A stretch of DNA of 64,000 bases, taken from the NCBI GenBank assembly GCA_011773515.1, contig WVXK01000062.1, positions 68,751-132,750 of the forward strand, read 5' to 3'. This DNA is from Deltaproteobacteria bacterium (GTDB taxonomy: Bacteria; Desulfobacterota; Deferrimicrobia; J040). Position numbers and translations under genes: made by a program. The notes under the pieces were generated by a model. It did not search any database and was not told the origin of the DNA. It worked only from the letters and a program-made list of their open reading frames with translations. The number at the start of each line of letters is the position of its first letter. Within the stretch, counting starts at the first letter, position 1. Below, piece by piece: positions 4,650-58,384 of the stretch.

Positions 4650-4703
4650 GCTAATCACTGGAGAAACCTCCTCTTTTTTACCGTCGTCAATTATGAAAAC
4701 AAC

Positions 4704-4735: not shown

Positions 4736-4746
4736 GCTCGTGCCGG

Positions 4747-6192: not shown

Positions 6193-6230
6193 CGCAATCC
6201 ACCTCCTTTTATCGGGTAGACGCCCCTCAT

Positions 6231-6713: not shown

Positions 6714-8981
6714 CTATACACCAACCTCCTTTTGGTTCACCACGAGATCCCCCTCAACGAGATCGAGGTAAAACATGTCCGACTCATTCCACATGAGCGT
6801 TATCGGGATCTTCACTTTCTCATCTATCGTCCTCTTGAGAAACCGTGCGCCGTATTTGATGCTGAACCCGATTTCAGAGAGAAAACCCAGAGATTCATCC
6901 GAGTACTGGAGGTCCTTTCCGTATTCGGCCATCGTCTTCTTGATCGTTTTCAGGTACATTTCCGCTATTTTCCTCACCTCCTCCATCGGGAGGAACCTGA
7001 AGACGATCACATCGTCAATTCGATTTATAAACTCGGGCGAAAAGCGTTCCTCAACGAGATTTATCACGCTCTTTTTCACCGATTCGTAGTTGGCATCTCC
7101 CACGTCAAAGCCCAGCGGCTTTGTCAGCCTCGAATACTCGCCGGCACCCAGGTTGCTCGTCATGATTATGATCGAATCGCTGAAGTATACCTTTTTGCCC
7201 CTGCCGTCGGTGAGCCACCCTTCATCGAAAACCTGGAGGAAAAGGTTGAGAACGTACTGGTCAGCCTTTTCGATCTCGTCCAGGAGGACCACGGTGTAGG
7301 GGTTGTCTTTTATCTGATTCGTCAAAATCCCGCCTCTCTCGGAGCCGACGATTCCCCGGGGCATGCCGATAAGTTTATCTACCGAGACGGTGCCGTCCCG
7401 GTACTCCGACATATCCACCCTCACCATCTTCTGATCATCACCGAAAAGGCATTGTGACAGCGCCTTTGCCATCTCCGTCTTGCCCACACCCGTCGGCCCC
7501 AGGAAAAGCAGAACGCCGTCCGGCTTGTAATAATTTTCCTTCAGGGGCCCCTTGTTCAGGCGCAGCGCCCTGCCCACGGCCTGGATTGCCTCGATCTGTC
7601 CCACCACTCTCGCCGTAAGGTCCTCCTCGATATGGGCGAACCTGTCCACAACATCCCGCTTGATTATGTCTACCGGTGTCTTGATCTCCTTCGATATCAC
7701 GCCGATGATATCCTCGGATGTGACGACTTTGTCCTTGTTCTCGATTTCAACCCTAACCGCTGCCGTATCGATCCAGTTGATAACCTTATCGGGGAGCCTC
7801 AGCGACCTTGCATATCTCTTGGACATGGAAAGAGCCATCTCTATTGCCTCATCGTCTATCACCACGCCATAATTAGACTCGAGACGGGGTTTGAGGCCGT
7901 AGAGTATCTCCCGCGTTTCCTCTATGGTGGGCTCGTCGATTTTTACGATTCTGAACCTCCTCGACAGAGCCTCGTCTTCCTGGATAATTTCCTTGTATTC
8001 CGTCGTGGTCGTTGCCCCTATCATCTGCACTTCACCCCGCGCCAGGGAGGACTTGAATATGTTCGCCGCATCGGAAGGAACACCCATGGCGGACCCGGCC
8101 CCGATAATTGTGTGGGCCTCGTCGACAAAGAGAATTATGTTCTTTTTCTCTCTGAGCTCATTTATGATCTTCTCGATCCTGTCCTCGAACATACCCCTGA
8201 ATACCGTACCGGCGACAACCGTGTTCATCTGAAGGTTGACCACCTGGTGGCCTCTCAGCCGCGGGGGCACCCTGTGGGGCTCGAACTCGAGGCGCAGCGC
8301 AACGCCCTCCACAACGGCGGTCTTACCCACACCGGGATCCCCCGTAACCATCACCGAATTGCACCTGTCCTTGTGGCAGAGAATTTCGAGAATCATATCG
8401 ATCTCATCTTCCCTTCCGATGACGGGGGGAATTTTTCCCTCCCTTGCCAGCAGGTTCAGGTTCACACCAAAGGTGCGAAGGTTAGTGGGAAGCTCGTATC
8501 TCTTCTTGAGGTCTTCGTATTTTTCCTCCCGCGTCTTCAGGTGCATGCTGAACTTCGAAAGGGCTGCCTGCGGATCGACCCCGTAACTCTTGAAAATTCT
8601 TGCCGGTATCGAATGTGTCTCGTGGAAGATTGCAAGAAAAATATCGGGAGGTTCGATGAGATTTCTCTTGTTCCTCTGTGTGGTTTCCCACGCGATGCGA
8701 AACACCTGTTTCGTCGCAGGGGGGATCTTCATGCCCACACCCAGGTATTGCCGCGAGATGCTCAAGTACTCCTTCAGGCTGTATATTACCGACTCAGGCT
8801 CGAGGCCGACGCTCTTTACCAGGTCCTGAAAGAGCTGCTTTTCAACCCCCGAAAAGGATATGAAGAGGTGTTCGAGCCCGAGGTAGTAGTGATGCCTCTT
8901 CTGGGACTCCTCGATGGCACTTGAAAGCATCTTCTGTGCTTTCTCGGTAAGTCTCTCTCTGTAGAACGCGATCTCCATCAT
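6714..8981 (-). CDS. ClpA/ClpC-family AAA+ unfoldase (Clp_N repeats + two AAA modules + ClpP-docking LGF loop)
   Basis: 755 aa; N-terminal double Clp_N repeat; Walker A GDPGVGKTAVVEG and [13 protein letters not shown]; KPLGFDVG tripeptide loop in D2 consistent with ClpP binding; ATG with GAGGG RBS. Confidence 0.9.
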   Translation of the reverse strand: MMEIAFYRERLTEKAQKMLSSAIEESQKRHHYYLGLEHLFISFSGVEKQLFQDLVKSVGLEPESVIYSLKEYLSISRQYLGVGMKIPPATKQVFRIAWETTQRNKRNLIEPPDIFLAIFHETHSIPARIFKSYGVDPQAALSKFSMHLKTREEKYEDLKKRYELPTNLRTFGVNLNLLAREGKIPPVIGREDEIDMILEILCHKDRCNSVMVTGDPGVGKTAVVEGVALRLEFEPHRVPPRLRGHQVVNLQMNTVVAGTVFRGMFEDRIEKIINELREKKNIILFVDEAHTIIGAGSAMGVPSDAANIFKSSLARGEVQMIGATTTTEYKEIIQEDEALSRRFRIVKIDEPTIEETREILYGLKPRLESNYGVVIDDEAIEMALSMSKRYARSLRLPDKVINWIDTAAVRVEIENKDKVVTSEDIIGVISKEIKTPVDIIKRDVVDRFAHIEEDLTARVVGQIEAIQAVGRALRLNKGPLKENYYKPDGVLLFLGPTGVGKTEMAKALSQCLFGDDQKMVRVDMSEYRDGTVSVDKLIGMPRGIVGSERGGILTNQIKDNPYTVVLLDEIEKADQYVLNLFLQVFDEGWLTDGRGKKVYFSDSIIIMTSNLGAGEYSRLTKPLGFDVGDANYESVKKSVINLVEERFSPEFINRIDDVIVFRFLPMEEVRKIAEMYLKTIKKTMAEYGKDLQYSDESLGFLSEIGFSIKYGARFLKRTIDEKVKIPITLMWNESDMFYLDLVEGDLVVNQKEVGV

Positions 8982-43162: not shown

Positions 43163-45799
43163 TCAGATCCGTTCCAGGTATTCCCGGGCCTTTTCAACGG
43201 CGATCTGTAACAAACGGTTGTCGGAGGAGCCGGTCTGCGCAAGGTCGGCCCTCCCGCCTCCCTTTCCTCCAACGGAGCGGGAAATCTCGTCAACAATTTT
43301 TCTCGCGTCGACCCGTGGAGAAACCTCCTTCGCCACTCCCACGAGAACGGTACTTTTCCCTTCCATTTGCGTTCCAAGGACGATCACCCCTCTTTTTACC
43401 TTCCCCTTCAGCTCGTCCATGACTTCCCTTAATATTTTTACATCCACTTCCTCAAAAAACCGATACGCGAACTGTACCCCTGCAAGCTCCTCCACCGTTA
43501 ACTCACCGCCGGCGAGACCTCCTTTGATGGCCTTTTTCCTGATATCCTCTTTCTCCTTCTCGAGCCTTTTCATATCGGAGAGAAGCTTTTCCACCCTTCC
43601 GTCGACTTCCCCCGGCGCAACGGCCAGAAGGTGAGCGGTGTTATCGAGGATCCTGCGGATACCGTTGAGATAGGTGACGGCCTCAACACCCGTCAAAGCC
43701 TCCATTCTTCGAACACCCGAGGCCAGGGCCCTCTCTTCAATGAGCACGAACACACCCAGTTCTCCCGTGTTCGCCGCATGAGTCCCACCGCAGAGCTCGG
43801 CGCTCACCGCGTCCACCTTTACCATCCTGACGATATCGCCGTACTTCTCCCCGAAGATAGCCACCGCGCCCTTCGTCAGCGCTACGTCGTACGGCAACAG
43901 CTCCCAGGATACATCTCTGCCCTGAAAAATGACCCTGTTCACGTACTCCTCGACGTGGTTTCTCTGGACCGGCGAGACCTGATCGAAATGGGTGTAGTCA
44001 AACCTCAGTTTATCGGGACCGACATAGGACCCCGCCTGTCTCACATGGTCGCCGAGAACGTTTCTCAAAGCCGCCTGGAGAATATGTGTCGCCGTGTGGT
44101 TTGCCCGGATCCTGCGCCGGCGGTCTTCATCCACCGTCAGGGTGGCCCTGTCCCCGACAGATACGATACCGGAGGTCACCGTTCCCCTGTGTCCAATGAT
44201 ATTCTCGGCAGCGTAGAACGTTTCCTCGATTTCAACCTCCCCCTCCGCTGCCGATATTCTGCCCCTGTCACCTATCTGCCCGCCGGCCTCGGCGTAGAAC
44301 GGAGTCCTGTTGGTGACTATTTCGACCTCATCCCCCTCACCCGCCTGCTCCACCGACTCCTGCCCGCGCACGATTCCTGCGATCTCACCGGTATCGGAGG
44401 TAAAATTATACCCGGTAAATTCCGTAACAAATCCCTTTTCCAGAATTTCCACATACGCCGAAATATCCGATGCGTACTCCCCACCCTTCCACGCCTGCCT
44501 TGCCCTTTCTCTCTGCTTCTCCATCTCAGTGTCGAACTCTTCCGTATCGACCGTGAGACCCCTTTCCCGGCAGATATCCTGGGTCAGGTCAAGGGGGAAG
44601 CCGTAGGTATCGTAAAGCTTGAAGGCAACACTGCCCTTGAAGACCTTCTCGCCCCGCATCACGCTTTTTCTCGCCTCTTCCTCGAATATCTTCAGTCCTC
44701 CATCGAGGGTCGCAAGAAACCGCGCCTCCTCATTGACAACCACTTTCCCGATGAACTCTCTGTTTGCCGAAAGCTCAGGGTACTGCTCCTTCATCTCCTC
44801 GATCACCTGCTCGGCGACACCATGTAAAAAAGGCTTTACAAAACCCAGCTTTTTACCGTGGCGCAGAGCCCTGCGCATAATCCTCCGCAGGACGTATCCC
44901 CTCCCCTCGTTTGCAGGCAAGACCCCATCGGCTATCAGAAATGCCGTTGCCCTTCCGTGATCGGCAATGACTCTCATTGCAGCATCTAAAGCTTTGTCTG
45001 ATCCGTATTCGATCCCCGCCATCCCGGCTATTTTCCCAATGAGGCCGGTGAAGAAATCTGTGTCATAATTGCTCTTCACCCCCTGCATGGCCACTGTTAC
45101 CCGCTCGAGTCCCATCCCGGTGTCGATGCTCGGCTTCGGCAGCGGCTGCAGGTTGCCCCCCTCGTCCCTGTTAAACTGCATGAAGACAAGGTTCCATATC
45201 TCGAGATACCTGTCACAGTCACAACCAACGGTGCAGGAGGGTCTCCCACATCCCACATCTTCTCCCTGATCATAAATAATTTCGGAACAGGGTCCGCAGG
45301 GACCCGTCTCTCCCATGGCCCAGAAGTTGTCCTCTTCACCGAACCTGAAAATTCTCTCTTCCGGTAAGCCCATATCCCTGTTCCACATATCGTAGGCCTC
45401 ATCATCATCCCTGAAAACAGAAACGTAAAGACGATCGGGTTCCAGGCCGAGGTCCCTCACGAGAAAGTCCCAGCCGTAAAAAATGGCCTCTTTCTTGAAA
45501 TAATCGCCAAAGGAAAAGTTTCCGAGCATTTCGAAAAATGTGTGATGCCTCGCCGTGTAGCCCACATTTTCCAGGTCGTTATGCTTCCCGGAAACCCTCA
45601 GGCATTTCTGAGAGGTAACAGCCCTCTTCGTCCCCACATTCTCAAGACCGAGAAACGCACCCTTGAACTGCACCATGCCGGCGTTGGTGAAGAGCAGGGA
45701 TGGGTCCTTCCCGGGAACGAGAGAAGAACTGGGAAGTATCCTGTGCCCATGTTTCTCAAAATACTTCAAAAACCTTTCTCTAACTTCCTTCCCCGTCAT
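43163..45799 (-). CDS. alaS: alanine--tRNA ligase
   Basis: 878 aa; class II core, editing domain HxxxH motifs, C-terminal DHHA1-like domain. Confidence 0.96.
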   Translation of the reverse strand: MTGKEVRERFLKYFEKHGHRILPSSSLVPGKDPSLLFTNAGMVQFKGAFLGLENVGTKRAVTSQKCLRVSGKHNDLENVGYTARHHTFFEMLGNFSFGDYFKKEAIFYGWDFLVRDLGLEPDRLYVSVFRDDDEAYDMWNRDMGLPEERIFRFGEEDNFWAMGETGPCGPCSEIIYDQGEDVGCGRPSCTVGCDCDRYLEIWNLVFMQFNRDEGGNLQPLPKPSIDTGMGLERVTVAMQGVKSNYDTDFFTGLIGKIAGMAGIEYGSDKALDAAMRVIADHGRATAFLIADGVLPANEGRGYVLRRIMRRALRHGKKLGFVKPFLHGVAEQVIEEMKEQYPELSANREFIGKVVVNEEARFLATLDGGLKIFEEEARKSVMRGEKVFKGSVAFKLYDTYGFPLDLTQDICRERGLTVDTEEFDTEMEKQRERARQAWKGGEYASDISAYVEILEKGFVTEFTGYNFTSDTGEIAGIVRGQESVEQAGEGDEVEIVTNRTPFYAEAGGQIGDRGRISAAEGEVEIEETFYAAENIIGHRGTVTSGIVSVGDRATLTVDEDRRRRIRANHTATHILQAALRNVLGDHVRQAGSYVGPDKLRFDYTHFDQVSPVQRNHVEEYVNRVIFQGRDVSWELLPYDVALTKGAVAIFGEKYGDIVRMVKVDAVSAELCGGTHAANTGELGVFVLIEERALASGVRRMEALTGVEAVTYLNGIRRILDNTAHLLAVAPGEVDGRVEKLLSDMKRLEKEKEDIRKKAIKGGLAGGELTVEELAGVQFAYRFFEEVDVKILREVMDELKGKVKRGVIVLGTQMEGKSTVLVGVAKEVSPRVDARKIVDEISRSVGGKGGGRADLAQTGSSDNRLLQIAVEKAREYLERI

Positions 45800-46274
45800 T
45801 TTCAGCCCTCGTCTTTCTCTCGTATTCAGAAATTATATCCGCACATTCGCCAGGGTCAAACCCTCTGGCCGCGAGAAATCCAAACACCCTCCTTCTGTTG
45901 TCAAGAATATCCCTCTTTCCCCGTTCCTGCTTCCTCGTCAACAGCTCCACGCCTCTTTCTACCGACCTGTCCCTGGTTAGAGCCTTTGACAACTCCCCGT
46001 TAATTATATCCTCCGGGATTTTCCTCCTCGCGAGATATTCCCGGATCTTCCTCCTGCCGTATCCCGAAGATTTGAATTTAAAGCCGATGAGGGTTCTGGC
46101 AAGCTCCCTGTCATTAAGGTATCCGAATTCCTTGAGCCTGCGAATCGCTTCCTCGACGAGGACCCCGTCAAACCCTTTTTGCAGGAGCTTCCGCCGCACC
46201 TCTGAAACGGAATACTGTCTGATGGAGACGATCCTGAGCGATTCTTTCAAGCAGTCTCTTGGGTCCATCGTCAA
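45780..46274 (-). CDS. recX: recombination regulator RecX
   Basis: 164 aa; RecX three-helix repeats (YSVSEVRRKLLQKGF...); 3' end overlaps alaS start by 20 nt. Confidence 0.88.
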   Translation of the reverse strand: MTMDPRDCLKESLRIVSIRQYSVSEVRRKLLQKGFDGVLVEEAIRRLKEFGYLNDRELARTLIGFKFKSSGYGRRKIREYLARRKIPEDIINGELSKALTRDRSVERGVELLTRKQERGKRDILDNRRRVFGFLAARGFDPGECADIISEYERKTRAENDGEGS

Positions 46275-47413
46275 GAACTGTCGTCATCACCATCAACCCT
46301 ATCAAACTCGTCCCAGGTGAGGTCGGAACTGCTCGTCACACCTTTTACCCGAAGGGCAAAATCTTCAGGATTGGTAGCCTGGCGCATAGCCTCATCAAGG
46401 GTTACCAAATCTTTTCTGTAGAGGTTCATGAGGGACTGGTCGAAGGTCTGCATTCCATACGTGGTAAACCCTTCGGCAATGGCATCCCGTATCTTTTTCG
46501 TCTTTTCCTTGTCTTCGATATACTCCCTTATGCGAGCCGTATTGAGGAGGATTTCCACAGCAGGTACCCTCCCTTCACCGTCAGTGCGCATCACCAGGCG
46601 CTGGGATATGATTGATTTGAGTATCGAAGAAAGCTGCAGCCTGATCTGCTTCTGCTGGTAGGGCGGGAAGACCGTTATGATACGGTTGATAGTCTCCGCC
46701 GCATCCAGCGTGTGCAGCGTGCTGAGGACGAGATGGCCCGTCTCAGCCGCAACCAGCGCAGTCTCGATCGTTTCGTAATCTCTCATTTCACCGACGAGTA
46801 TCACATCCGGGTCCTGCCTGAGAGCGCTCTTCAGGGCTGCGGCGAAGTTGGGGGTGTCAACCTCTACTTCTCTCTGGGTGATTATGCTCTTTTTGTCCTT
46901 CAGGAGAAACTCGATGGGGTCTTCTATCGTAATTATGTGGCAGGTCCGGTGATTGTTTATGTACTCGATAATCGATGCGAGAGTGGTCGATTTTCCGCTC
47001 CCCGTGGTTCCCGTGCAGAGAATGAGCCCCCTTGATTCTGAAGCGACCTTTTCGAGGATTTCCGGAAGATTCAACTCCTCGAAGGAAAGGACCCCCCCGG
47101 GAACAACTCGCAGCGCAACGCCGAGAGTACCTCTCTGCATGAATATGTTCGCCCGAAAACGGCCGAGTCCAGAAACGCTGTACGCCACGTCGAGTTCTCT
47201 CATCTCCCTGAATCTTTCCTTCTGAGCATCGCTCAGCACCATGTTCGTGATACCCATGAGATCTTCCTGCTTCAGCCGGTAATCCATTTTCAGGGGGACG
47301 AGCCTACCATTGACACGAAGGACAGGAGGCAGGCCCACCTTCAGGTGGACATCTGAAGCCTTGTTTTTTACGGCAACTTTCAATATTTCATTTAGGTTCA
47401 GGGACATGTTCAC
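46271..47413 (-). CDS. pilT: type IV pilus retraction ATPase PilT
   Basis: 380 aa; [33 protein letters not shown]; sits between recA and recX with 4-nt overlaps on both sides. Confidence 0.93.
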
Positions 47414-48456
47414 ACTCCCTTTTCTTCATTATTTTGTCTTACCTCGGCAACACTCAGGCCCGTTTTTTCCCGCACCTCTCTCTCTATGCTCTCCTTCAGG
47501 TCCGGATGCTGTTTCAAAAACCCCCTCGCGTTTTCCTTTCCCTGCCCTATTTTTTCACTCTGGAAAGAATACCAGGACCCGCTCTTCTCCACTATTTCGA
47601 GGTTGGTTGCAAGATCTATCAGATCGCCTTCCCTGGATATTCCCTCTCCGTAGAGGATATCGAACTCTACGTCTCTGAATGGGGGTGCAAGCTTGTTTTT
47701 CACGATCTTCGCCCTCGTCCTGTTCCCGATCACCTCGTTTCCAACCTTGATTTGCGCTATTCGCCTGATATCGATCCTCAGAGACGAGTAAAACTTGAGG
47801 GCCATCCCGCCCGTGGTGGTCTCGGGATTTCCGAACATCACGCCTATTTTCATCCTCGTCTGATTGATAAATATGACCGCCGTGTGCGACTTGCTGATGG
47901 TAGCCGTTAGCTTCCTCAACGCCTGGGACATGAGCCTGGCCTGGAGACCCATGTGTGCGTCACCCATCTCGCCTTCGAGTTCAGCTCTGGGAACGAGCGC
48001 GGCAACCGAGTCTATGACGACCAGGTCGACCGCCCCGCTGCGGACGAGTGTCTCCACGATGTCGAGAGCCTGTTCGCCTGAATCCGGCTGGGAAATAATC
48101 AGGTCATCGGTATTCACCCCGAGCTTGCCTGCATAGTGAACATCCAGGGCATGTTCCGCATCGATGAATGCCGCAACACCCGACATTTTCTGCGATTCAG
48201 CGAGTATGTGGAGGGCAAGCGTGGTCTTACCGGACATCTCGGGACCGAAAATCTCGGTAATCCTCCCACGGGGGATCCCGCCGATTCCCAGGGCTATATC
48301 GAGAGAAATGGAACCGGTGGGTATTGCCGGGACCTCCTGAACACTTCCCTGCTCCCCCAGGCGCATGATGGAGCCCTTACCGTACTGTCTCTCTATGGAA
48401 GAGAGGGCAATATCGAGTGCTTTTTTTCTATTAGGATCCATGGCTACCTCCGCCAT
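47410..48456 (-). CDS. recA: recombinase RecA
   Basis: 348 aa; GPEMSGKTT Walker A; canonical RecA. Confidence 0.97.
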
Positions 48457-48499
48457 ATTATTTTTATCGGTAAATTAAGAGAAGTTAATAACTATCCTC

Positions 48500-49039
48500 T
48501 CATAATTCTATCGTCTCGATTATATCGTATATCGGCCCACTCTTTAAAATGGTACTTTTGTAGAGGCAGAAATTCTTTGCCACGAATTCGCCAAAAGAGC
48601 TTTTTTCCGGGGCAAACTGTATATCCCTGGCAAATTTTCTCACCCTCCCGATGGTGCAGTGGGGATGAAACCTCCTGCCTTCTGCAGCAAACCCTAACTT
48701 CCGCATTTCCCTCTGGATATCATCATGCAAATTTTTTACCATTTCGCTTCCTTTTTCCACCCCTATCCAGTAAACCCGGGGATATTTCAACGAGGGAAAA
48801 GCCCCGACCGAGGAGAGGGAAATGAGAAACGGCTCTTTCCCGGCAGCCGATTCCAAAAGCCCCTCGATTATTGAAGAAACGATATCTCCCTCCACCTCTC
48901 CGAAAAATTTCAGGGTTATGTGAAAATTATTTTTTCCCACCCACTTAACCCCTTTCATGTTAACAGGCGCGTCGGCAATAAAGGCAGCTATATCTTCCCG
49001 GATATCACCGGGTATCGGTATTCCGGTGAACAACCTCAC
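48500..49039 (-). CDS. thpR: RNA 2',3'-cyclic phosphodiesterase (ThpR/LigT, 2H family)
   Basis: 179 aa; two HxT/SxK motifs (HITLKF, HCTIGR). Confidence 0.88.
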   Translation of the reverse strand: MRLFTGIPIPGDIREDIAAFIADAPVNMKGVKWVGKNNFHITLKFFGEVEGDIVSSIIEGLLESAAGKEPFLISLSSVGAFPSLKYPRVYWIGVEKGSEMVKNLHDDIQREMRKLGFAAEGRRFHPHCTIGRVRKFARDIQFAPEKSSFGEFVAKNFCLYKSTILKSGPIYDIIETIEL

Positions 49040-49728
49040 AGATTGCCTCCGCTTCTTATTGCCTTCATCAGATTGAAAATCGCAAAAGAGGACACCTTGC
49101 GTTTTATCTCCTGTCTCGTGCCGGCAAACTGTATGCGCTTCCTCTCCCGGCCAAAAGGAGTCACGATACCGAACCAGACCGTCCCGACCGGTTTTTCCTC
49201 CGTCCCGCCCTCGGGCCCGGCAACCCCCGTAATCGAAAGTGCATAATCCGAACCGGTAATTCCCGCTATCCCGCCTGCCATCTCCTCTGCAACGACGGCG
49301 CTGACCGCGCCGAAATCCCTGATAGCCCCCTCCGATACGCCCAACTGAGAAACCTTCATTTGGTTACTGTAGGCAACGACGGACCCGATAAAATAGTTTG
49401 AACTGCCGGGGACATTCGTAATTCTGTCCGCAACCTGACCTCCCGAGCACGATTCGGCAACCGACACCGTCACACCCCTTCCGACGGCAATTTCCTTGAG
49501 GTATTCCTCCATGATGCTTTCCCCCGTACCCGCAAAATGAGAGGCGGCAAACGGGGGTATCATAAATTCAGAATCTTTTTCGGAAATATCCTTGATTTCG
49601 AACAGATACTCGAAATAATTTCCTCTTACATCAGCTACATACATATTCCTTGCCCGGTAGTATCCCCTGATTTTCTCTAAAAGATCTGCCGTTGCGATAA
49701 AGAATTTCACCTTCAGCGTTCCCAACAT
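49036..49728 (-). CDS. CinA C-terminal-domain (PncC-like NMN deamidase) protein with unique ~70-aa N-terminal extension
   Basis: 230 aa; C-terminal 160 aa match CinA_C (AESCSGGQVADRITNVPGSS...GSVVAYSN); ATG directly abuts the pgpA TAG stop (TAGATG), supporting the long form. Confidence 0.8.
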   Translation of the reverse strand: MLGTLKVKFFIATADLLEKIRGYYRARNMYVADVRGNYFEYLFEIKDISEKDSEFMIPPFAASHFAGTGESIMEEYLKEIAVGRGVTVSVAESCSGGQVADRITNVPGSSNYFIGSVVAYSNQMKVSQLGVSEGAIRDFGAVSAVVAEEMAGGIAGITGSDYALSITGVAGPEGGTEEKPVGTVWFGIVTPFGRERKRIQFAGTRQEIKRKVSSFAIFNLMKAIRSGGNL

Positions 49729-50208
49729 CTACCTCCAGAAAGGAATGAGAATCTTCACGATAAGAAAATAGTGGATAATTGCGGCATACATGCCTGCGAT
49801 CAGGTCATCGAGAATGATAAACTGCACCCCCTCCTCTCTGTTTGCCCAGGAAGCGGGCCATGGTTTAAGAATATCAAATAACCTAAAGAGGATAAACAGG
49901 CTCACCCCTGTCAAAAGATCCCTCTCGAAAATGCCTCCTGCAACCATGAAGCCAAGGATCTCATCGACGACAACGTATGAGGGGTCTTTGAACCCCGTTT
50001 CTACAACCACCGATTTTATCCCCGGGATGGAGAAAAAAAGAATAATGGCAAAAAGTCCCCAGTAAAGGAGGAAATCGGTCACGAAATACCATATGGCAAA
50101 ACCGACACAGGAACCGAAAGTACCCGGGATGAGGGGAATATTTCCTGTATAGAACCCCCGGGCGACCAATTCGGAGCATGTGAGAAACAGACCTTTTTCC
50201 TTGTCCAT
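49729..50208 (-). CDS. pgpA: phosphatidylglycerophosphatase A
   Basis: Track ORF to 50292; start MDKEKGLFLTC at 50208 gives 160 aa; PgpA motifs LIPGTFGSCVG, VVDEILG, RLFDILKPWP. Confidence 0.85.
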   Translation of the reverse strand: MDKEKGLFLTCSELVARGFYTGNIPLIPGTFGSCVGFAIWYFVTDFLLYWGLFAIILFFSIPGIKSVVVETGFKDPSYVVVDEILGFMVAGGIFERDLLTGVSLFILFRLFDILKPWPASWANREEGVQFIILDDLIAGMYAAIIHYFLIVKILIPFWR

Positions 50209-50302
50209 AAAAAAGCTCCCCGGGGATACGGAAAGAACCCGAAAGTACCCTATTATAGCGGTAATATCCCCTGCAAAACAGGGCGAAGTCAATTATAAAT
50301 TA

Positions 50303-50332
50303 TTGACTTTCAAAGAATTATAAAAATAGAAT
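50303..50332 (+). promoter_or_regulatory. sigma-70-like promoter (TTGACT-N18-TAGAAT) for the HEAT / HD-GYP gene pair
   Basis: Seen directly in the 80-bp gap upstream of 50373. Confidence 0.4.
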
Positions 50333-50372
50333 ATTTCTGATATGCTCAAACCCGGTTTCAATCGAGGCAATT

Positions 50373-51941
50373 TTGAAAAACAATCTCGGCGATCCTCGGC
50401 TTGAAAAGATAGTTAAAGCAGTCACGGAAATGTCGAAGGGTTTAAAGGCAGTCGCTTTCTACCCGGAAAACCATCCCTCGCTCAATGCAATTTTACAAAA
50501 AATCTGTGAATCATTCGATGCAATCCCCCCACCGGAAAAGGGGCTCGAAATTTCCGTGAGCAAGACGGACCTCCTGATAGACGAGCAGAAGCTTTCCGAA
50601 AGACACGAGGCCGTGTCGGACTTTCGCAATGCCCTTTTCGTCAACAGAACGAAAAAACTCATCATCCTTCCCGGAACAACACCACTGGAAATGATGAATT
50701 TTTTGGAAGCGGTAAACGTAGACCCCGATGAGATCCTGAAAAAGGGAGGGCTGCAGAGGATACTCATCGGTAAAAGAATTGCCAGGATATGGATAAACAA
50801 GGTGGAGTACGACAAACTCATGGAGGAACTCAAAAAGGAGCAGGAGCACAAGGCCCAGGAGGAGGAGTTTGTCGTGATCGATAAGTCCCCCGCGGAAAGC
50901 GAGGTGGACATCGAAGAGGAGGACATAGAAACGCTTCTCAAATCCCTCCGGCAAACGACGGTGTCCGATCTTTACAGGGACCTCGTTCAGCGAATTTCGA
51001 GAAGAATTAATGAATTGATCAAAAACCAGCTGCTCCTTTACGCGGAAAAGGCAATAAAGATATATGCGCATCACATAGAATACCCCCCGGGAGAGGACAG
51101 AGTAATGGCCGATCTCGCCGCTGGCGGTATTCTCGAGGTCACAAACGATGACATAATCGATCTCTACGTAAAGAAATTCGGCAGCAAATCGTTGCAGGAA
51201 AGGATGGAAGCGCAAACGGTTCTGATGGTACTCGGAGAAGTTGGTGTGGCCAAGTTGCTCATTGCGCTCACGGAAGAAAAAAACATTATCGTGCGAAAGG
51301 CGATGGTAGAGCTGATAACAAAGATGGGGGATCCGGCAGTTCCATATATCATCAAGTATCTCAATGATGAGCGATGGTACGTTGTGCGAAACATGGTTAC
51401 CATACTTGGCGGAATAGAAAACGAAGAGGTGGCCTCTTACATAGCAAGTACCCTTCAGAACAAAGATATACGGGTAAAAAAAGAAGCGATAAAGGCCCTT
51501 TCGAAAAACCCGAGCCCAGACGCGACCACTGCCCTGGGGGGATGCTGTTTCGACAGTGACGAAAACATCACGACAATAGCCGTCTCGTCCCTGGGAAGAA
51601 AAAAAGACGATAAGGCCGTCCAAATCCTCGAGGAGAGATTCCATAAAAAAAAGTTCATTTATCCGGAGTATCGAGTTTCGTTGGAAATCATCGAGTCTTT
51701 GAAAAATATCGGCACAAACAGGGCTGTTTCGGCCCTGGAGAAAATCGCAACCTACAATCCTCTCTTCAAGCCCAAGAGGATGAAGGAGCTAAAAAGCGCC
51801 GCCGTGCAGGGCATAGGGAGGGTAAAATCAGAAAAAGCAAGAGAAGTGCTTGAAAAGTTATCCCGAAGTTCCGATATCATATGTAAGCGGGAAGCATCCA
51901 AATCATTACAGAGGTTGGATGATGGAAAGGCTGGAACTTGA
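50373..51941 (+). CDS. HEAT-repeat (PBS-lyase HEAT-like) protein with N-terminal domain shared with the downstream HD-GYP protein (DUF3391-like)
   Basis: 522 aa; TTG start per track; C-terminal half shows HEAT_2-type repeats (VRKAMVELITKMGDPAVPYIIKYLNDERWYVVRNMVTILG...); N-terminal ~130 aa align with the N-terminus of ORF 51919. Confidence 0.75.
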   Translation: MKNNLGDPRLEKIVKAVTEMSKGLKAVAFYPENHPSLNAILQKICESFDAIPPPEKGLEISVSKTDLLIDEQKLSERHEAVSDFRNALFVNRTKKLIILPGTTPLEMMNFLEAVNVDPDEILKKGGLQRILIGKRIARIWINKVEYDKLMEELKKEQEHKAQEEEFVVIDKSPAESEVDIEEEDIETLLKSLRQTTVSDLYRDLVQRISRRINELIKNQLLLYAEKAIKIYAHHIEYPPGEDRVMADLAAGGILEVTNDDIIDLYVKKFGSKSLQERMEAQTVLMVLGEVGVAKLLIALTEEKNIIVRKAMVELITKMGDPAVPYIIKYLNDERWYVVRNMVTILGGIENEEVASYIASTLQNKDIRVKKEAIKALSKNPSPDATTALGGCCFDSDENITTIAVSSLGRKKDDKAVQILEERFHKKKFIYPEYRVSLEIIESLKNIGTNRAVSALEKIATYNPLFKPKRMKELKSAAVQGIGRVKSEKAREVLEKLSRSSDIICKREASKSLQRLDDGKAGT

Positions 51942-53298
51942 TGAAAAAATAAGGGAAATAACGAAAGTACTCGGGGGCAGCCTCAAAAGCCTGGGGCTGT
52001 ATCCGAAAGACCATCCCCTCGTTAAGAAGTCGATAACCCAGGCATTCGACCTCATCAGTTCCCTGCTCGAAGAGCTCGGGGAGCTTGTGCTTGCTATCGT
52101 CGATGACACTCTCGTTTTCGAGGGAACTCCCATCTACAAGCTCACATCGTCTCTTGAGCTCTTTATCGAATCCCTCAGGGACTGCGGAATAGAGGCAATG
52201 ATTTTTCACAGGGGGCTCAAAAGGGACGAGGTGGAAGGTGCGATTTCCCTTCTCCACGAAAACCGGGGCATCAAATTGACCGACAGGAAGGTAAAAACTC
52301 TTTTCAGGGAGAGGGGGATAACGAAGATCGTCATTGTCACCATCGAAAAAGAAGAGGAAGAAGATGATCTGTCGATGGCAAAGGAGATCTACCAGAATGC
52401 CCTCTCCGCGGTAACGGCGGTGCTGAATGATATTCGCCTCGGCAAGATACCTTCGGGAAAGGAATCGAGAAAGGTGGTCCAGGACATATCGAGCATGCTC
52501 ACGAGGAATAAGGACGCCATGCTGGCCCTCACCATGATAAAGAACTACGATGAATACACATACACCCACTCTGTGAACGTGTCCGTCATCTCTCTTGCAA
52601 TAGCCGAGTCCCTCTCTTTATCCGATACGGAAAAGGTGGACATAGGAGTTGCCGGCCTTCTCCACGATGTGGGAAAAACCCAGCTCGCTCTCGACCTGAT
52701 CAGGAAACCTTCGACGCTGACGATAGAGGAATTTGAAGAAATAAAGAAACACCCCGATGAAGGATACAGGATCCTTTCAGAAATGGAGTTCATCAATCCC
52801 GTATCGGGAAAAATAGTAAGGGAACACCACATGGGATACGATCTTTCCGGGTATCCCCACACCGAACCCAGATACACGATGGAACCTTACAGCCAGATAG
52901 TTAGCATCGCAGACTGCTACGACGCCCTCTCAACGCTGAGGACCTATCAGAAACCGAGACCCCCGAAAGAATCGCTCGAGGTAATGACGAAAATGGCCGG
53001 AAAATCCCTGGACCCGGCCATGGTAAAAGTCCTGATAAAAATACTGGGAATCTATCCCATCGGAACAATGGTGCGCCTTGACACAAACGAGGCAGCAGTC
53101 GTATCTGCTCAGAACGTAGAGGATTCGACAAGGCCAAAGGTCATCGTACTGACGGACTCAGAGGGGAAGCAGCTCGAATTTCCCGTTCACCTTGACCTTT
53201 CAGAGAAAGACCCCACCACCGGGAAATATAAGAGGAACATAGTCACGACAGTCAACCCTCTCCTCGAAAATGCCAACCCATCAAGATCCGTGGCTTAA
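51919..53298 (+). CDS. HD-GYP domain phosphodiesterase-like protein (degenerate HHE motif) with DUF3391-like N-terminal domain
   Basis: Track ORF from 51850; start at MMERLELDEK (51919). HD motif GLLHDVGK; GYP motif present as HHMGYDLSGYP (canonical HHExxDGxGYP); overlaps upstream gene by 23 nt. Confidence 0.85.
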   Translation: MMERLELDEKIREITKVLGGSLKSLGLYPKDHPLVKKSITQAFDLISSLLEELGELVLAIVDDTLVFEGTPIYKLTSSLELFIESLRDCGIEAMIFHRGLKRDEVEGAISLLHENRGIKLTDRKVKTLFRERGITKIVIVTIEKEEEEDDLSMAKEIYQNALSAVTAVLNDIRLGKIPSGKESRKVVQDISSMLTRNKDAMLALTMIKNYDEYTYTHSVNVSVISLAIAESLSLSDTEKVDIGVAGLLHDVGKTQLALDLIRKPSTLTIEEFEEIKKHPDEGYRILSEMEFINPVSGKIVREHHMGYDLSGYPHTEPRYTMEPYSQIVSIADCYDALSTLRTYQKPRPPKESLEVMTKMAGKSLDPAMVKVLIKILGIYPIGTMVRLDTNEAAVVSAQNVEDSTRPKVIVLTDSEGKQLEFPVHLDLSEKDPTTGKYKRNIVTTVNPLLENANPSRSVA

Positions 53299-53856
53299 CG
53301 GGATCGCGCCGAGGGCGAAGGCTACTGCTTTTCGCACCGATGGGCTTTCCGATTCCGCCTTGCTCATGATTTCACCCAACGCATCGGAAGAACCTATCCG
53401 GCCGAGGGCTTCAATCGTTCTCGCCTGTATCTCGGTATCGGGGTGGTTTATGAAATTCATCAGCACGGGGCCGAGCTCCCTTCTTCCCGAGTTTCCAAGG
53501 ACGCTTATCACATTACCGAGCACGTAACCTTTTTCCAGGGGTAAACGGTCCACCAGGGCCTTCAGTACTGCACCCCTCGGATAGTTTTCGAGGATCCTGA
53601 TCGCCGCTCCCCGCACATCGTCGGCTGCGTCCCCCACGGCCTTCATGAGAAGCTTCAACCCCTCCTCCCCGCCCATCTCCTCCGCTGCGTAAACCACCCT
53701 GAGCCTCTCCTCCGGCTTTCCAGAGCTCAAGACACCCATGAACTCAGGGAAGTTTTTTCTGGCGGCAAGCCTGCCGAGAGCAATCGAAGCCTCTTCTTTC
53801 ACCGGAGCCACCTTATCATTGACAAGCGCATGTAAAATTCTTTCAATTTCCTCCAA
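53281..53856 (-). CDS. small HEAT-repeat protein
   Basis: 191 aa; 4-5 HEAT_2-like repeats; 3' end overlaps the convergent HD-GYP gene by 18 nt; 5' end overlaps S58 peptidase stop by 14 nt. Confidence 0.75.
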   Translation of the reverse strand: MEEIERILHALVNDKVAPVKEEASIALGRLAARKNFPEFMGVLSSGKPEERLRVVYAAEEMGGEEGLKLLMKAVGDAADDVRGAAIRILENYPRGAVLKALVDRLPLEKGYVLGNVISVLGNSGRRELGPVLMNFINHPDTEIQARTIEALGRIGSSDALGEIMSKAESESPSVRKAVAFALGAIPLSHGS

Positions 53857-54871
53857 TGTTTCCTCCTCTTCCGGTTATTTCCCTGGCGCAGGGCAACCCT
53901 CCTCTGGATTTTGCCGAAAAGACGGCAGAAGTGAGCGATTCATACGTAACTTCTTCCGTCATTGCAATGAATTTCATAAGATTTTCAACCCTTTTCTTCT
54001 TCCCCGTAGACAGGGAAAAAACGATATCCCCGTCAAAGATCGACCCATACGGGCGTATATGCGATGAGAGGAAGTTATTGAGTTGCGACGCCACGATGTA
54101 ATGCTCCTTTTTCTCGAGCAAAGCGTCTGTCACCACCACCGTTATGGTTGTGCTATCCATCCCTCCAAAGGGCTTCCTCGTGTAGCCCTCCAGGAACATC
54201 TTCCTCGTATTCCCGTACCCGCTTTTCCCGGACAACCGAACCCCGGCAATTATTTCACCGCTTTTGTCGTATACATCACCAAAGGCATTGAGTACCATCA
54301 TCGAACCGATAGCATAGCCCTCGTCCGCCAGGCGAAGTCCAATGCCTTTTGTGGTCTTGGTCGCACTCTCGATCCCGAGAATCTTGCCTACCGAAGCCCC
54401 GGCACCGGCTCCCTCCAGGTTATTTCTTCCTTCATCAGAAAGTGCATCGGCAACAGCTTTTCTCCCCAGGTCATGGTAGTCCATACCCACATTTTCTTTG
54501 AATGACAGGTCGTAGATAACCGCGGTCGGAACAACAGGGATACTCGTTGTTCCCGTGAACAACCCGATATTTCGCTCATTGAGCTCGCGCACAACAGCCG
54601 ATGCCGCAGCGAGGCCGAAAACGGAACCCCCGGAAACGACAAGTCCAAAAATTTTTTCCACCGTGTGTGTCAGGGAGAGAGAATCCATCTGCCGGGTACC
54701 CGTTGCAAAACCCCGCGCTTCAGCTGAACCCACCGCACCGTGGGGAAAAAGAAGAACTGAGGTCCCTGTGAGCCCGCTCTCAGAAACGGCGCTTCCGACG
54801 CGTACTCCCTCAATCGACTGCCAAGGACAAATTTTTCCGGCCATTGAGGATATTTGATACAATTTACGCAT
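53843..54871 (-). CDS. P1/S58-family peptidase (DmpA-like L-aminopeptidase/D-esterase)
   Basis: 342 aa; S58/DmpA fold signatures (GTSVLLFP, autoproteolytic Gly-Ser/Thr region GTTSIP); start may be at 54844. Confidence 0.75.
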   Translation of the reverse strand: MRKLYQISSMAGKICPWQSIEGVRVGSAVSESGLTGTSVLLFPHGAVGSAEARGFATGTRQMDSLSLTHTVEKIFGLVVSGGSVFGLAAASAVVRELNERNIGLFTGTTSIPVVPTAVIYDLSFKENVGMDYHDLGRKAVADALSDEGRNNLEGAGAGASVGKILGIESATKTTKGIGLRLADEGYAIGSMMVLNAFGDVYDKSGEIIAGVRLSGKSGYGNTRKMFLEGYTRKPFGGMDSTTITVVVTDALLEKKEHYIVASQLNNFLSSHIRPYGSIFDGDIVFSLSTGKKKRVENLMKFIAMTEEVTYESLTSAVFSAKSRGGLPCAREITGRGGNIGGN

Positions 54872-55002: not shown

Positions 55003-55443
55003 ATGGGTAAAAAAACGGCAGGAAGGCGGCTTTGTTTGGACTATGGGAAGAAAAAGATTGGAATTGCAATTTCCGACCCCACAGCTACCATTGCTCAGCC
55101 TCACTCCGTTATGGAAAGAGAGACCGAAGAGCTGGATATAGAGAAAATTCATGATCTCGTAGCAACTTATGGCATCAAAAAAGTGATCATGGGCTTGCCC
55201 CTGGAACTTTCAGGGGAAGCCGGACAGAGCGCTATGGATGTTTTCCAATTTATCGAAAAGTTGAAAGTTGCCCTCGAGGGGGTGGAAATCGAGACCTGGG
55301 ATGAACGCCTATCGACCGTTTTCGCAGAAAAAGAGATGATCAGGGACAATGTGAGGCGAAAGAAGAGAAAAAAGGTAATCGACCAGCTCGCGGCAACCAT
55401 AATTCTCCAGAGTTTCCTTGATGCAGAATCGAGAGATGGATGA
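55003..55443 (+). CDS. ruvX: putative pre-16S rRNA nuclease / Holliday-junction resolvase-like YqgF
   Basis: 146 aa; RLCLDYGKKKIGIAISD N-terminal RNase H-like motif; conserved pairing with mltG. Confidence 0.9.
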   Translation: MGKKTAGRRLCLDYGKKKIGIAISDPTATIAQPHSVMERETEELDIEKIHDLVATYGIKKVIMGLPLELSGEAGQSAMDVFQFIEKLKVALEGVEIETWDERLSTVFAEKEMIRDNVRRKKRKKVIDQLAATIILQSFLDAESRDG

Positions 55444-56485
55444 AAAAGCGGGGTTGGAAAAACCAACCTTGAGAAGAGTTGCCGAACTGTTCCTCGTCGC
55501 GATTTGCGCCTATGTGATCATTACCTCTATCCTGTTCGTCGCCTACCTCTATTCGACTCCTGCCGCTGAAAATTTTTCAGCCAAGAAAATTTATATCGAG
55601 AAGGGCACGCCTTTCAGGTCGGTAGTCGATGATCTCTACAGGGAGGGAATAATCAGCTCCAAAACCTTTTTCAACCTCCTTGCCCATGTAACTTTCAGCA
55701 CAAAAAAGATAAAGGCAGGTGAATATATAATCCCTACCCCCCAGAAACCCCTCTTCGTGCTGAAAAAGCTCGTCCTCGGGCTCGTAGCAAAATACTACAT
55801 CACGGTCCCTGAAGGGAGCAGCATCTACAACATAAGCTCCCTTCTCGACTCGTATAAAATAGCACAAAAGGAGAGGTTTCTTGCCCTTGCCGGCTCAAAG
55901 GAAGTAGCAAGGCAATACGGGATCGACTCCCGGTCTCTCGAGGGATATCTCTTCCCCGATACCTACGTCTTCACGCGCGGTATGGATGAAAAAGCCATAA
56001 TAGACATGATGATCAACCGTTTTCGCAAGGCCTACCCCGAGGATATGGACGAGAAAAGGAAAAAGCTGGGAATTACAGTCGACGATCTGATCACCATAGC
56101 ATCGATAGTTGAGAAGGAGACCTCCCTTGACAGGGAAAAACCGATCATCGCCTCCATAATATATCGGCGGCTGAAAAAAAACATGCGCCTTCAGATGGAT
56201 CCGACGGTCATTTACGGCCTGAAAAAATGGGACGGGAAGTTGACGAAAAAAGACCTCTCGACCGATCACGATTTCAACACGTACGTGAGGAGGGGTTTGC
56301 CCCCGGGACCGATTTCAAATCCAGGCCTGGCTTCCATAAAAGCGACCCTGAATCCGTCTGAGACAACATACCTCTACTTCGTCTCAAAAAACGATGGGTC
56401 CCACCACTTCTCGCGAACACTGCGGGAGCACATTAATGCGGTGAACCGTTATCAGAAATTTACGAAAGGTTCGAGAAAAAAGTAG
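55418..56485 (+). CDS. mltG: endolytic murein transglycosylase MltG (YceG family)
   Basis: 355 aa; N-terminal TM; YceG signature LYFVSKNDGSHHFSRTLREH. Confidence 0.9.
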   Translation: MMQNREMDEKAGLEKPTLRRVAELFLVAICAYVIITSILFVAYLYSTPAAENFSAKKIYIEKGTPFRSVVDDLYREGIISSKTFFNLLAHVTFSTKKIKAGEYIIPTPQKPLFVLKKLVLGLVAKYYITVPEGSSIYNISSLLDSYKIAQKERFLALAGSKEVARQYGIDSRSLEGYLFPDTYVFTRGMDEKAIIDMMINRFRKAYPEDMDEKRKKLGITVDDLITIASIVEKETSLDREKPIIASIIYRRLKKNMRLQMDPTVIYGLKKWDGKLTKKDLSTDHDFNTYVRRGLPPGPISNPGLASIKATLNPSETTYLYFVSKNDGSHHFSRTLREHINAVNRYQKFTKGSRKK

Positions 56486-56552
56486 TTATCGTCCATGGAT
56501 CGGTTGATAGCCGCGGGGATCGCCCCACAGCAGGCGGGAGCAGTGGGCCTTC

Positions 56553-56963
56553 CTATTCTTCCTCTTCGAAATCGACTATGGAAATCTTCCTCAATGTCTC
56601 TTCGGGTTCCTCTGTCCAGGTTTTTTCCTCTTTTTCGATCATTTCCTTGCAGTCGACACAATAGAGGGCAAATGGCATAACCTTAAGACGCCCCTTCGGT
56701 ATCTTGGCGCCGCACTCCTCACAAACTCCGTAACTTCCCTCGTCAATTTTTTCGAGGGCCTCCTCTATCAAACGGAGTTTCTCTTTCTCCCTCTTGGAGA
56801 GGAGAAGGTCGAACTCCCTCGCTCTTTCCTGGAAACAGGAGTCAACGTCATCTCCGATATCCTCGTTTATGTTCTTGCTCGTCTCTTTGAGCCTCCACGT
56901 GATATCACGGATAAGCTCGTCGCGCATTTTAACGAGGACCTCTTTCATCGATTTCATCGACAT
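56553..56963 (-). CDS. DksA/TraR-family C4 zinc-finger regulator
   Basis: 136 aa; coiled-coil N-region and CEECGAKIP...CVDC zinc finger. Confidence 0.85.
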   Translation of the reverse strand: MSMKSMKEVLVKMRDELIRDITWRLKETSKNINEDIGDDVDSCFQERAREFDLLLSKREKEKLRLIEEALEKIDEGSYGVCEECGAKIPKGRLKVMPFALYCVDCKEMIEKEEKTWTEEPEETLRKISIVDFEEEE

Positions 56964-57010
56964 CCTCCTGCGTTGACATCACAAGGTTCAAAAAATATAC
57001 CCTTTTCACC

Positions 57011-58384
57011 TTAAAAGTCAATCTCTTTTTCATTGATAACTGTCCCGGAGAGGTCATAATGGTCACAACTGTCAATCTTCACCGTAACAAATTCCCCCTC
57101 CTTGACGGGCCGCGTGTATTCTGCCGTCACGAAACCATCCACCTCGGGTGCCTGGCCGTAATATCTTCCTGTCAGCGTGGCCTCACGTCTGCTAACGGCA
57201 TCCACGAGAACCTTTGCTTTTTTCCCCAGGTACCTTTTATTCTTCTCAAAGGATATGCGGGACTGAACCGTGATGAGCTCTTCCAGTCGGGAGATTGCAA
57301 CATTTTTTTTCACCTTCGGAACCATTCCCCAGGCAGGTGTCCCTTCCTCCCTTGAATAGGTGAACCCACCGAGCCGTTCAAATCCCACGTCCTCGATGAG
57401 TCGAAGCAGCAATTCAAAATCATTCAGACCCTCTCCCGGGAAACCCACCATGACCGTCGTTCGAAGGACGAGGTCATCCAGGTTTGTCCGGAGCATGGCA
57501 AAGAGTTCGTAGAGGTATTCCCGCGTATAGCCCCTGTTCATCCTTTCCAGAATTCTGGTGCTTCCATGTTGAATGGGAATATCGAGATAGTTGAGTACAA
57601 GCGGGCTCTCCCGGATGATCTTCACGAGTTTTTCCGTGATACGGGCCGGATGAAGGTAGAGCAGCCTCAACCAGATGTCGCCCGATGCATGGCAGGAAAG
57701 CTCTTCGAGCAAGTTTTCGAGGATAAAACCCCGGGCGCCGTCCTTTCCAAAAGAGCCGATATCCTGACCAACCAGGTTGACCTCGGAAACCCCCTTCTGT
57801 ATCATTGCGCGAAATTCAGAGACAATTCTCTTCGTCTCCCTGCTTGCAAGGGGTCCCCTTATATCGGGAATGGTGCAATAAGAGCAGTGGTTTGAACAGC
57901 CATCTGTTATTTTCAAATATCTCCAGGCCCGTCCTTTCCCTCTGATTCTCTCGATATACAGATCCTCCAGGTCGGTTTTTTCTTCAATACCCATCCCCCC
58001 CCGTCCGACCCCCATCACGTCCATTAAAATTTCGTCTATTCTGCCCACGTCTGTTATTTTGAAACATTTATCGATCTCGGGGATTTCCATTTCAAGCTCA
58101 ACCATGTACCTCTGCGAGAGACAGCCTCCAACGAGAATTTTTCCAACCTTTCCCTTCCTCTTGAGCTCCACGAACCTGAAAATTTCGCCGAGCGATTCCT
58201 CCTTGGCTGCATCGATGAATCCACAGGTATTTATGATCACGGCATCGAGGAAGCCCCTTTTCCTCAGTGAAACACCCCGCCTGGCAAGGACGGTCTCCAT
58301 CACCTCGGTATCGACCATATTTTTTGCGCACCCCAGATGCACCAAGCCGACACGAAACACCCTGTCTTTAACCAATACGCTCAT
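57011..58384 (-). CDS. rimO: radical-SAM methylthiotransferase, RimO-like (MTTase N-domain + radical SAM + TRAM)
   Basis: 457 aa; VGLVHLGCAKNMVDTE (UPF0004 N-domain), CSNHCSYCTIP radical SAM, C-terminal TRAM. RimO vs MiaB not resolved; N-terminus is RimO-like. Confidence 0.8.
   Translation of the reverse strand: MSVLVKDRVFRVGLVHLGCAKNMVDTEVMETVLARRGVSLRKRGFLDAVIINTCGFIDAAKEESLGEIFRFVELKRKGKVGKILVGGCLSQRYMVELEMEIPEIDKCFKITDVGRIDEILMDVMGVGRGGMGIEEKTDLEDLYIERIRGKGRAWRYLKITDGCSNHCSYCTIPDIRGPLASRETKRIVSEFRAMIQKGVSEVNLVGQDIGSFGKDGARGFILENLLEELSCHASGDIWLRLLYLHPARITEKLVKIIRESPLVLNYLDIPIQHGSTRILERMNRGYTREYLYELFAMLRTNLDDLVLRTTVMVGFPGEGLNDFELLLRLIEDVGFERLGGFTYSREEGTPAWGMVPKVKKNVAISRLEELITVQSRISFEKNKRYLGKKAKVLVDAVSRREATLTGRYYGQAPEVDGFVTAEYTRPVKEGEFVTVKIDSCDHYDLSGTVINEKEIDF

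Follow-up and report, generated by a model that had tools for sequence, protein, structure and literature searches.

Tandem genes for a HEAT-repeat protein and a variant HD-GYP protein share a paralogous N-terminal domain in a Desulfobacterota genome

Of the two classes of cyclic-di-GMP (c-di-GMP) phosphodiesterases, the HD-GYP enzymes are the less well understood. Here, we describe two overlapping genes, A and B, in a 64,000-nucleotide stretch of DNA (the window) from Deltaproteobacteria bacterium (GenBank assembly GCA_011773515.1, contig WVXK01000062.1, positions 68,751 to 132,750 of the forward strand) that encode a HEAT-repeat protein and an HD-GYP protein and open with paralogous copies of one domain. 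This domain of about 135 residues, referred to below as the N-domain and recognizable by the motif YPxxHP, is, judged by sequence comparison, previously undescribed; it recurs in twos in many phyla, and in B it accompanies a changed HD-GYP signature loop next to an invariant set of metal ligands and catalytic residues. We favor, tentatively and with somewhat less than even confidence, a complex in which a HEAT scaffold and a phosphodiesterase would be joined by their paired N-domains, the enzyme being active and its GYP loop remodelled. The two genes and their N-domains are located as follows.

50373-51941, forward strand: gene A, 522 residues, with a YPxxHP N-domain joined by an acidic disordered linker to a HEAT-like alpha-solenoid
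50394-50810, forward strand: N-domain of A (residues 8-146), with YPENHP at 50460-50477
51922-53298, forward strand: gene B, 458 residues, with an HD-GYP domain that is preceded by a YPxxHP N-domain and a helical hairpin and followed by a C-terminal beta domain
51928-52344, forward strand: N-domain of B (residues 3-141), with YPKDHP at 52000-52017

Alignments of the N-termini were made from orthologous loci, with one genome per species and with the upstream and downstream open reading frames (ORFs) extracted. Aligned to one another with hhalign, 28 A-type and 27 B-type N-termini gave a probability of 99.5% and E=1.6e-22 over 132 colinear columns (A residues 11-142 and B residues 8-139). When 15 A-type and 10 B-type N-domains are aligned jointly with MAFFT, the alignment is nearly gap-free; the Y, H and P of the YPxxHP motif do not vary, and a Lys five positions before it is nearly invariant. 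Used alone as a tblastn query, the N-domain of A matches the N-termini of B orthologues in other genomes, down to 9e-7. AlphaFold models (mean predicted local distance difference test score, pLDDT, of 90.3 for A and 81.7 for B) give both N-domains the same order of elements, alpha-alpha-beta-beta-beta-alpha-beta-alpha-alpha-beta, with two long helices, a three-stranded meander, a helix, a strand, two helices and a strand. Comparison of the two single sequences is marginal by BLASTP (a 41-residue match, E=8e-4) and yields a Smith-Waterman score of 60 (z=5.6) that was reached by 1 of 2000 shuffles. The paralogy of the N-termini, which an initial annotation made from the letters of the window had proposed, is confirmed by alignment and structure prediction alike, the family-level profile evidence being decisive, and the arrangement that it described, tandem genes with one copy fused to HEAT repeats and the other to an HD-GYP domain, is borne out by Pfam (HEAT_2 on A, HD_5/HD on B). 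In a neighbor-joining tree, the A-type N-domains separate from the B-type ones, and the branching within the two clades runs in parallel (with two long-branch exceptions), so the duplication is old and the pair has been inherited together. A homologue search with A residues 1-163 alone returned no match, seemingly owing to a word-index limit for short queries, and the full-length query worked.

Pfam has no family on the first 140 residues of A or B, and 25 N-domains searched against it gave no convincing match, DUF3391 included. NCBIfam adds nothing specific for A or B and no N-domain match, and the N-domain profile run against all PDB sequences recovered only designed coiled-coil and alphaRep noise. 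The domain had initially been called DUF3391-like. DUF3391 (PF11871) does score on B in Pfam, at E=0.063 and 14.2 bits versus a cut-off of 27.8, at residues 144-176, which are in the linker helix and outside the N-domain. DUF3391 has a topology in which four strands precede two helices, Bd1817 being an example (bioRxiv 10.1101/2021.11.05.467447), whereas the N-domain models open with two long helices. Given the sub-threshold linker match, the absence of matches among the 25 N-domains (0/25) and this difference in topology, identity with DUF3391 was rejected.

The N-domain profile was scored against 1.84 billion representative proteins, with matches counted as clusters at 50% identity; the joint profile found 7,776 clusters at E<=1e-3 and 2,725 at E<=1e-10. 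Among the 150 matches listed, 144 were newly retrieved, comprising 104 of HEAT type, 4 of HD-GYP type, 2 with an MshEN domain and a remainder consisting mostly of fragments, plus three large repetitive proteins. Pairing was assessed in 80 genome loci retrieved with the B family by tblastn, 33 of which have a HEAT protein directly upstream, with gaps between A and B of -23 to +50 nucleotides. A hidden Markov model (HMM) of the N-domain detected two adjacent N-domain ORFs in 33 loci, including loci of WOR-3, Stahlbacteria and Vicinamibacterales in which the upstream protein is too divergent for tblastn. Loci with a single detection either are cut off where the contig stops or have a B N-domain that falls slightly short of the threshold, and among the loci retrieved there was no N-domain HD-GYP protein with adequate upstream sequence that lacked an upstream N-domain ORF. 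The 33 loci with adjacent A and B come from Deferrimicrobia, Geobacter/Geomonas, Desulfobacterales, Acidobacteriota, Nitrospiria, Zixibacteria, Elusimicrobia, Ignavibacteria, WOR-3 and Stahlbacteria, and the taxa covered also include Bdellovibrionota and Gemmatimonadetes. Two N-domains also occur within one polypeptide in five representatives: P0308 (two N-domains followed by HEAT repeats), P0329 (N-domain, linker, N-domain and HD domain), and P0246, P0296 and P0374, which are high-GC fragments ending in the second N-domain copy. A self-dimerising domain classically leaves its mark on genomes in the form of adjacent-gene pairs and intramolecular tandems, and the recurrence of N-domains in twos is evidence of the Rosetta-stone type.

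One of the two MshEN matches, P0367, is a complete MshEN-T2SSE ATPase with an N-domain. Its contig (locus L083, GCA_049472295.1) carries two tandem MshEN-T2SSE ATPase genes, at 2055-5645 and 5983-8874, whose products of 1186 and 957 residues both open with a YPxxHP N-domain (2e-28 and 2e-29). These genes lie downstream of a sigma-54 activator, and they link the N-domain to c-di-GMP-binding secretion or pilus ATPases. In a further representative, P0253, one called ORF joins the N-terminus of a Mutator-family transposase to an N-domain and HEAT repeats, which is probably an insertion or a gene-calling artefact.

The catalytic part of B comprises two features.

52531-53046, forward strand: HD-GYP catalytic domain of B (residues 204-375), aligned to PmGH (4mcw) and V-cGAP3 (5z7c)
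52825-52857, forward strand: GYP-loop motif HHMGYDLSGYP, canonically HHExxDGxGYP, with M in the place of E, L in that of G, and HH, D and GYP kept

B has an HD-superfamily fold with HD-GYP-specific insertions (Pfam HD_5/HD on residues 206-367, E=3.9e-23), and its HD motif lies at 52663-52668. The metal ligands of PmGH are E185, H189, H221, D222, H250, H276, H277 and D305 (PMC4159591). In B, H189 corresponds to H216, H221 and D222 to H248 and D249, H250 to H277, H276 and H277 to H302 and H303, and D305 to D331; of the other aligned positions, D183 corresponds to D210, K225 to K252, Y285 to Y311, D308 to D334 and R314 to R340, with E185 and K317 of PmGH aligned to Y212 and Q343. Across the 31 paired proteins, the residues mapped from PmGH are all invariant except at the positions of E185 and K317, and D210, H216, H248, D249, K252, H277, H302, H303, D331, D334, G310-Y-P and R340 are kept in 31/31. 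The E185 position is Tyr in all 31 (Tyr212 in B), and HD-GYP proteins lacking an acidic residue there form the binuclear subclass (10.1101/2021.11.05.467447), to which B is assigned by its aligned residues, with all seven predicted binuclear ligands present. The metal site and the catalytic residues are therefore intact, and strong purifying selection acts on them. KP(G/S) and RxY are invariant as well; B has KPS (residues 262-264) and most of its orthologues have KPG.

By the consensus HHExh(D/N)GxGYP, which it does not match, B falls into a variant subfamily rather than among canonical HD-GYP proteins. The coordinates and sequence of HHMGYDLSGYP were checked and agree with the initial reading, in which M stands for E and L for G while HD, D and GYP are retained. 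The further suggestion that the HHE is degenerate, or a possible sequencing error, did not hold: in 120/120 orthologues (48-100% identity) HH is followed by M, V, L, I, A or Y and never by E, the commonest loop being HHMRFDRTGYP, and all N-domain HD-GYP proteins retrieved from other phyla likewise lack the Glu, usually having a hydrophobic residue instead. A sequencing error was therefore rejected as the source of HHM. Position 304 is M, I, L, V or W in 31/31 paired proteins; among 43 proteins scored as unpaired it is E in 36, all without an N-domain, and W, R or I in 7 N-domain proteins. Position 308, the Gly of DGxGYP, is non-Gly (R, L, H, K or N) in 29/31 paired proteins and Gly in 42/43 others, and position 320 (PmGH I294, the eighth residue beyond the P of GYP) has L, M or F in the paired proteins and Ile in 34/43 others.

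The structural roles of these positions are known from other HD-GYP proteins. In Bd1817, the Glu of HHE is no metal ligand; by way of backbone amides and a buried water it keeps the second U-turn of the GYP loop in place, and a tight kink is made possible by the first Gly of DGxGYP (PMC3188283); in PmGH, I294 closes the second turn of the loop (PMC4159591). The GYP loop is surface-exposed, and its region has been implicated in RpfG-GGDEF contacts (PMC4159591, PMC3188283). Three loop-bracing residues have thus changed jointly, and the lineage in which they did so is precisely the one that gained the N-domain and the HEAT partner. As the replaced Glu and Gly brace the loop and the ligands are invariant, an active enzyme with a remodelled loop is to be expected, and not the altered metal coordination or receptor function that had been suggested from the same substitutions: the Glu is absent from the PmGH ligand set, and all binuclear ligands and catalytic residues are invariant.

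The features of A outside the N-domain, and the candidate promoter, are as follows.

50303-50332, forward strand: sigma-70-like promoter candidate, TTGACT-18-TAGAAT, in the 80-nucleotide gap before gene A (consensus match only)
50811-50924, forward strand: acidic linker of A (residues 147-184, about 38 residues), with pLDDT <50 for residues 159-181
50925-51932, forward strand: HEAT-like solenoid of A (residues 185-520), with 19 helices in about 9 hairpins (AlphaFold)

From about residue 280, Pfam finds HEAT_2 on A in 5 stretches (E=5.6e-32, 110.3 bits) and also HEAT_PBS, so that A carries tandem helical-hairpin HEAT repeats (PF13646, PF03130). Residues 185-520 form a continuous alpha-solenoid in a high-confidence model with about 9 hairpins; the initial annotation had counted approximately 8 HEAT repeats. 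Foldseek matches to the A model are alphaRep and designed armadillo proteins (E about 1e-9) and importin-alpha, all of them peptide- or protein-binding scaffolds. A catalytic domain is not detectable in A.

Gene A starts with TTG, 6 bases after GAGG, and is also called with 522 residues in GCA_012974925.1. Gene B has two adjacent ATGs, at 51919 and 51922, the second of which is used by the public annotation and by all orthologues (458 residues), and AGAGG lies 5 nucleotides upstream of its start. The reported 23-nucleotide overlap of the genes is real when counted from the first ATG and is 20 nucleotides from the annotated start. Sharing of one promoter, also claimed initially, agrees with the overlap and with a single sigma-70-like match upstream of A, the site itself being a weak consensus match (3 such sites in the region versus 5.1 expected). 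Protein B is identical to one in the metagenome-assembled genome GCA_012974925.1 (contig JABAOE010000068.1), where the gene order is unchanged, and the nearest relatives of the locus are Candidatus Deferrimicrobia/Deferrimicrobiaceae.

In the favored complex, A and B would be made from one transcript with coupled translation and would associate heteromerically, each contributing its paralogous YPxxHP N-domain. In other HD-GYP proteins, dimerisation occurs through an N-terminal domain and a connecting helix. B would be a catalytically competent binuclear HD-GYP cyclic-dinucleotide phosphodiesterase, and A a non-enzymatic HEAT scaffold or regulator that recruits B to a target or gates it, with the remodelled, exposed GYP loop as a candidate contact surface for the partner. 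The coupling of the genes and the shared domain do point to a shared partner or ligand, as the initial annotation had held.

Domain homology, synteny, residue conservation and the recurrence of paired N-domains are shown here, and from them we infer heterodimerisation, catalytic activity, the role of the loop and the substrate. Several considerations weigh against such a complex. Adjacent domain-sharing genes would fit equally well a pair of independent homodimers responding to a single ligand. The motif's invariant Y, H and P, with the Lys, look as much like a ligand pocket as like an interface. Three fold searches with the full-length models were dominated by HD and HEAT matches. Conserved catalytic residues do not prove activity of B, and RpfG reportedly has little phosphodiesterase activity. 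As to the substrate, the base-recognition motif of B, which reads guanine-1, is R340-T-Y-Q343, in which RxxK has become RxxQ and which carries the Rxx[Q/N] signature; its Q is invariant in a 40-sequence alignment, and RxxQ/N is reported to shift HD-GYP enzymes toward cGAMP (3',3'-cyclic GMP-AMP; bioRxiv 10.1101/600031). The substrate of B may therefore be cGAMP rather than c-di-GMP, as a lead for this clade only. Across the 31 paired proteins, however, the Q343 position is Q in 19, S in 6, R in 2 and other residues in the rest, and an RxxS enzyme still hydrolyses c-di-GMP (10.1101/2021.11.05.467447), which together make the substrate assignment weak. Gmet_3476, the G. metallireducens enzyme assayed in the cGAMP study, was considered as an orthologue and rejected, being a REC-HD-GYP protein.

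The main rival to the complex, which we regard as unlikely, is that the N-domain senses a small molecule or second messenger and that A and B, not binding each other, form separate homodimers responding in parallel to one ligand. The N-terminal placement of the domain would suit this, being that of HD-GYP sensor domains (10.1101/2021.11.05.467447), as would the residues of the alpha1-alpha2 turn, where HEAT, HD-GYP and MshE-type proteins have an invariant Y, H and P and a nearly invariant K, and the presence of the N-domain on two kinds of c-di-GMP machinery, HD-GYP proteins and MshEN ATPases. Separate sensing homodimers nevertheless leave unexplained the near-constant adjacent pairs and the single-chain tandem N-domains, as well as why a HEAT scaffold with no output would need a sensor, and no ligand-binding family is detectable in the N-domain by sequence in Pfam and PDB profile searches.

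Quite improbable, in our view, is the model of the initial annotation in which B, because its HHE is degenerate, is a catalytically dead HD-GYP protein that acts as a c-di-GMP receptor. Degenerate HD-GYP receptors or regulators are known (HnoD, ECA3548, Bd1817 and DvhD; 10.1101/2021.11.05.467447), and both residues replaced in B are among the most conserved of the family motif. The known receptors, however, have lost HD/HH metal ligands or the GYP Tyr, all of which B keeps and which are invariant across phylum-level distances, and the replaced Glu and Gly are structural loop residues and not ligands (PMC3188283, PMC4159591). A receptor-only role is thus made less likely by the retention of every catalytic residue. 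A chance or compositional resemblance of the N-termini with incidental adjacency, compatible with a pairwise identity of only about 15-20% and a BLASTP match spanning 41 residues, is already refuted by the hhalign alignment over 132 columns, the tblastn cross-matches, the detection of both N-domain types by one HMM and the adjacency in 33 loci from many phyla.

The favored HEAT-phosphodiesterase complex may be an instance of something wider, in which the YPxxHP domain is a previously unnamed pairing module, possibly nucleotide-binding as well, that couples the products of neighboring genes into two-subunit local-signalling complexes in multiple phyla and couples pairs of MshE-type secretion or pilus ATPases, while the HH-hydrophobic/DR loop is the structural change that makes the phosphodiesterase HEAT-dependent or gated. 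Taken as a whole, this generalization is possible but somewhat doubtful.

Known HD-GYP systems resemble the A-B pair in part. In the Bd1817/PA4108 family (DUF3391-HD-GYP, COG2206), no obligate HEAT partner has been described; B differs in that its N-domain is not DUF3391 and begins with two long helices, and it has both the GYP Tyr and the His that Bd1817 lacks. PA4781, one of the binuclear HD-GYP phosphodiesterases that lack Glu at the PmGH E185 position, is a REC-HD-GYP protein with a canonical HHE..DG loop, unlike B with its HHM..DL and its other input domain. The 'GAP' HD-GYP proteins PmxA, Bd2325 and Gmet_3476 (Rxx[Q/N], cGAMP-selective) share with B the RxYQ, which is invariant in the clade of B; they differ from B in their Cache-HAMP or REC inputs and canonical HHE. 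RpfG-GGDEF of Xanthomonas is a precedent for the exposed GYP loop as a protein-protein contact (PMC4159591, PMC3188283), with a GGDEF partner and a canonical loop in RpfG, in contrast to the changed loop of B and its proposed HEAT partner from the same operon. MshE-type ATPases, which have the c-di-GMP-binding MshEN domain, include a subset that shares the YPxxHP N-domain at the extreme N-terminus; unlike B, their output is a T2SSE ATPase, and there are none in the window.

A 2021 census of HD-GYP proteins found that most have N-terminal regions without a recognized domain; it covers DUF3391, DUF3369 and four membrane domains, with HEAT unmentioned, and verifies its counts by checking for the motif HHExh[D/N]GxGYP. 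Full-text literature searches for an HD-GYP protein with a HEAT partner found no description of such a pair. What is new here, in an enzyme family already known, is the combination of a previously undescribed domain for input or pairing with an obligate partner and a loop specific to the lineage. One such uncharacterized HD-GYP N-terminal region is hereby delimited as a large family and tied to gene pairing and to a change in the signature loop, and motif filters that require HHE would miss the whole subfamily despite its intact active site.

The remaining features at the locus are the C-terminal domain of B and the genes that follow it.

53047-53256, forward strand: C-terminal beta-rich domain of B (residues 376-445), with AlphaFold strands, conserved in orthologues
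53281-53856, reverse strand: gene C, a 191-residue HEAT-only protein (HEAT_2 E=2.3e-23), convergent with B, with an 18-nucleotide 3' overlap
53843-54871, reverse strand: peptidase S58 (DmpA-like) gene, overlapping the beginning of gene C at its own 3' end by 14 nucleotides

Pfam has no family for B residues 376-445. Parts of this C-terminal beta domain (YPIGTMVRL...VNP) align in canonical HD-GYP proteins without an N-domain, for example from Marinobacter and Burkholderiales. Gene C resembles the HEAT part of A and follows B in Deferrimicrobia-like and Geobacter loci (L023, L024, L025, L033 and L019); it is the only other neighbor conserved outside the Deferrimicrobia-like group and may be a third component of the A-B system. 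The S58 gene stands beside C in only some Deferrimicrobia-like loci (L004, L009-L012 and L027).

The pair lies among housekeeping genes: upstream, at 45780-50292, the window encodes RecX, a PilT-like ATPase, RecA, LigT (2',5' RNA ligase family), CinA and PgpA, and downstream, at 55003-58384, RuvX, YceG/MltG, a DksA/TraR zinc-finger protein and a MiaB-like radical-SAM protein. A wider conserved neighborhood was rejected, since this order is kept only among Deferrimicrobia-like genomes; the neighbors at the Geomonas locus are unrelated (Nramp, Usp and desulfoferrodoxin). Membership in a defence system was likewise rejected, as PADLOC gave generic HEAT and HD matches only. Gene A lies in the 2-kb bin of lowest GC content in the window (50001-52000; 0.463 versus about 0.52), with a strong AT skew of +0.26, and both the low GC content and the positive skew of this bin probably stem from the Lys/Glu-rich sequence of gene A.

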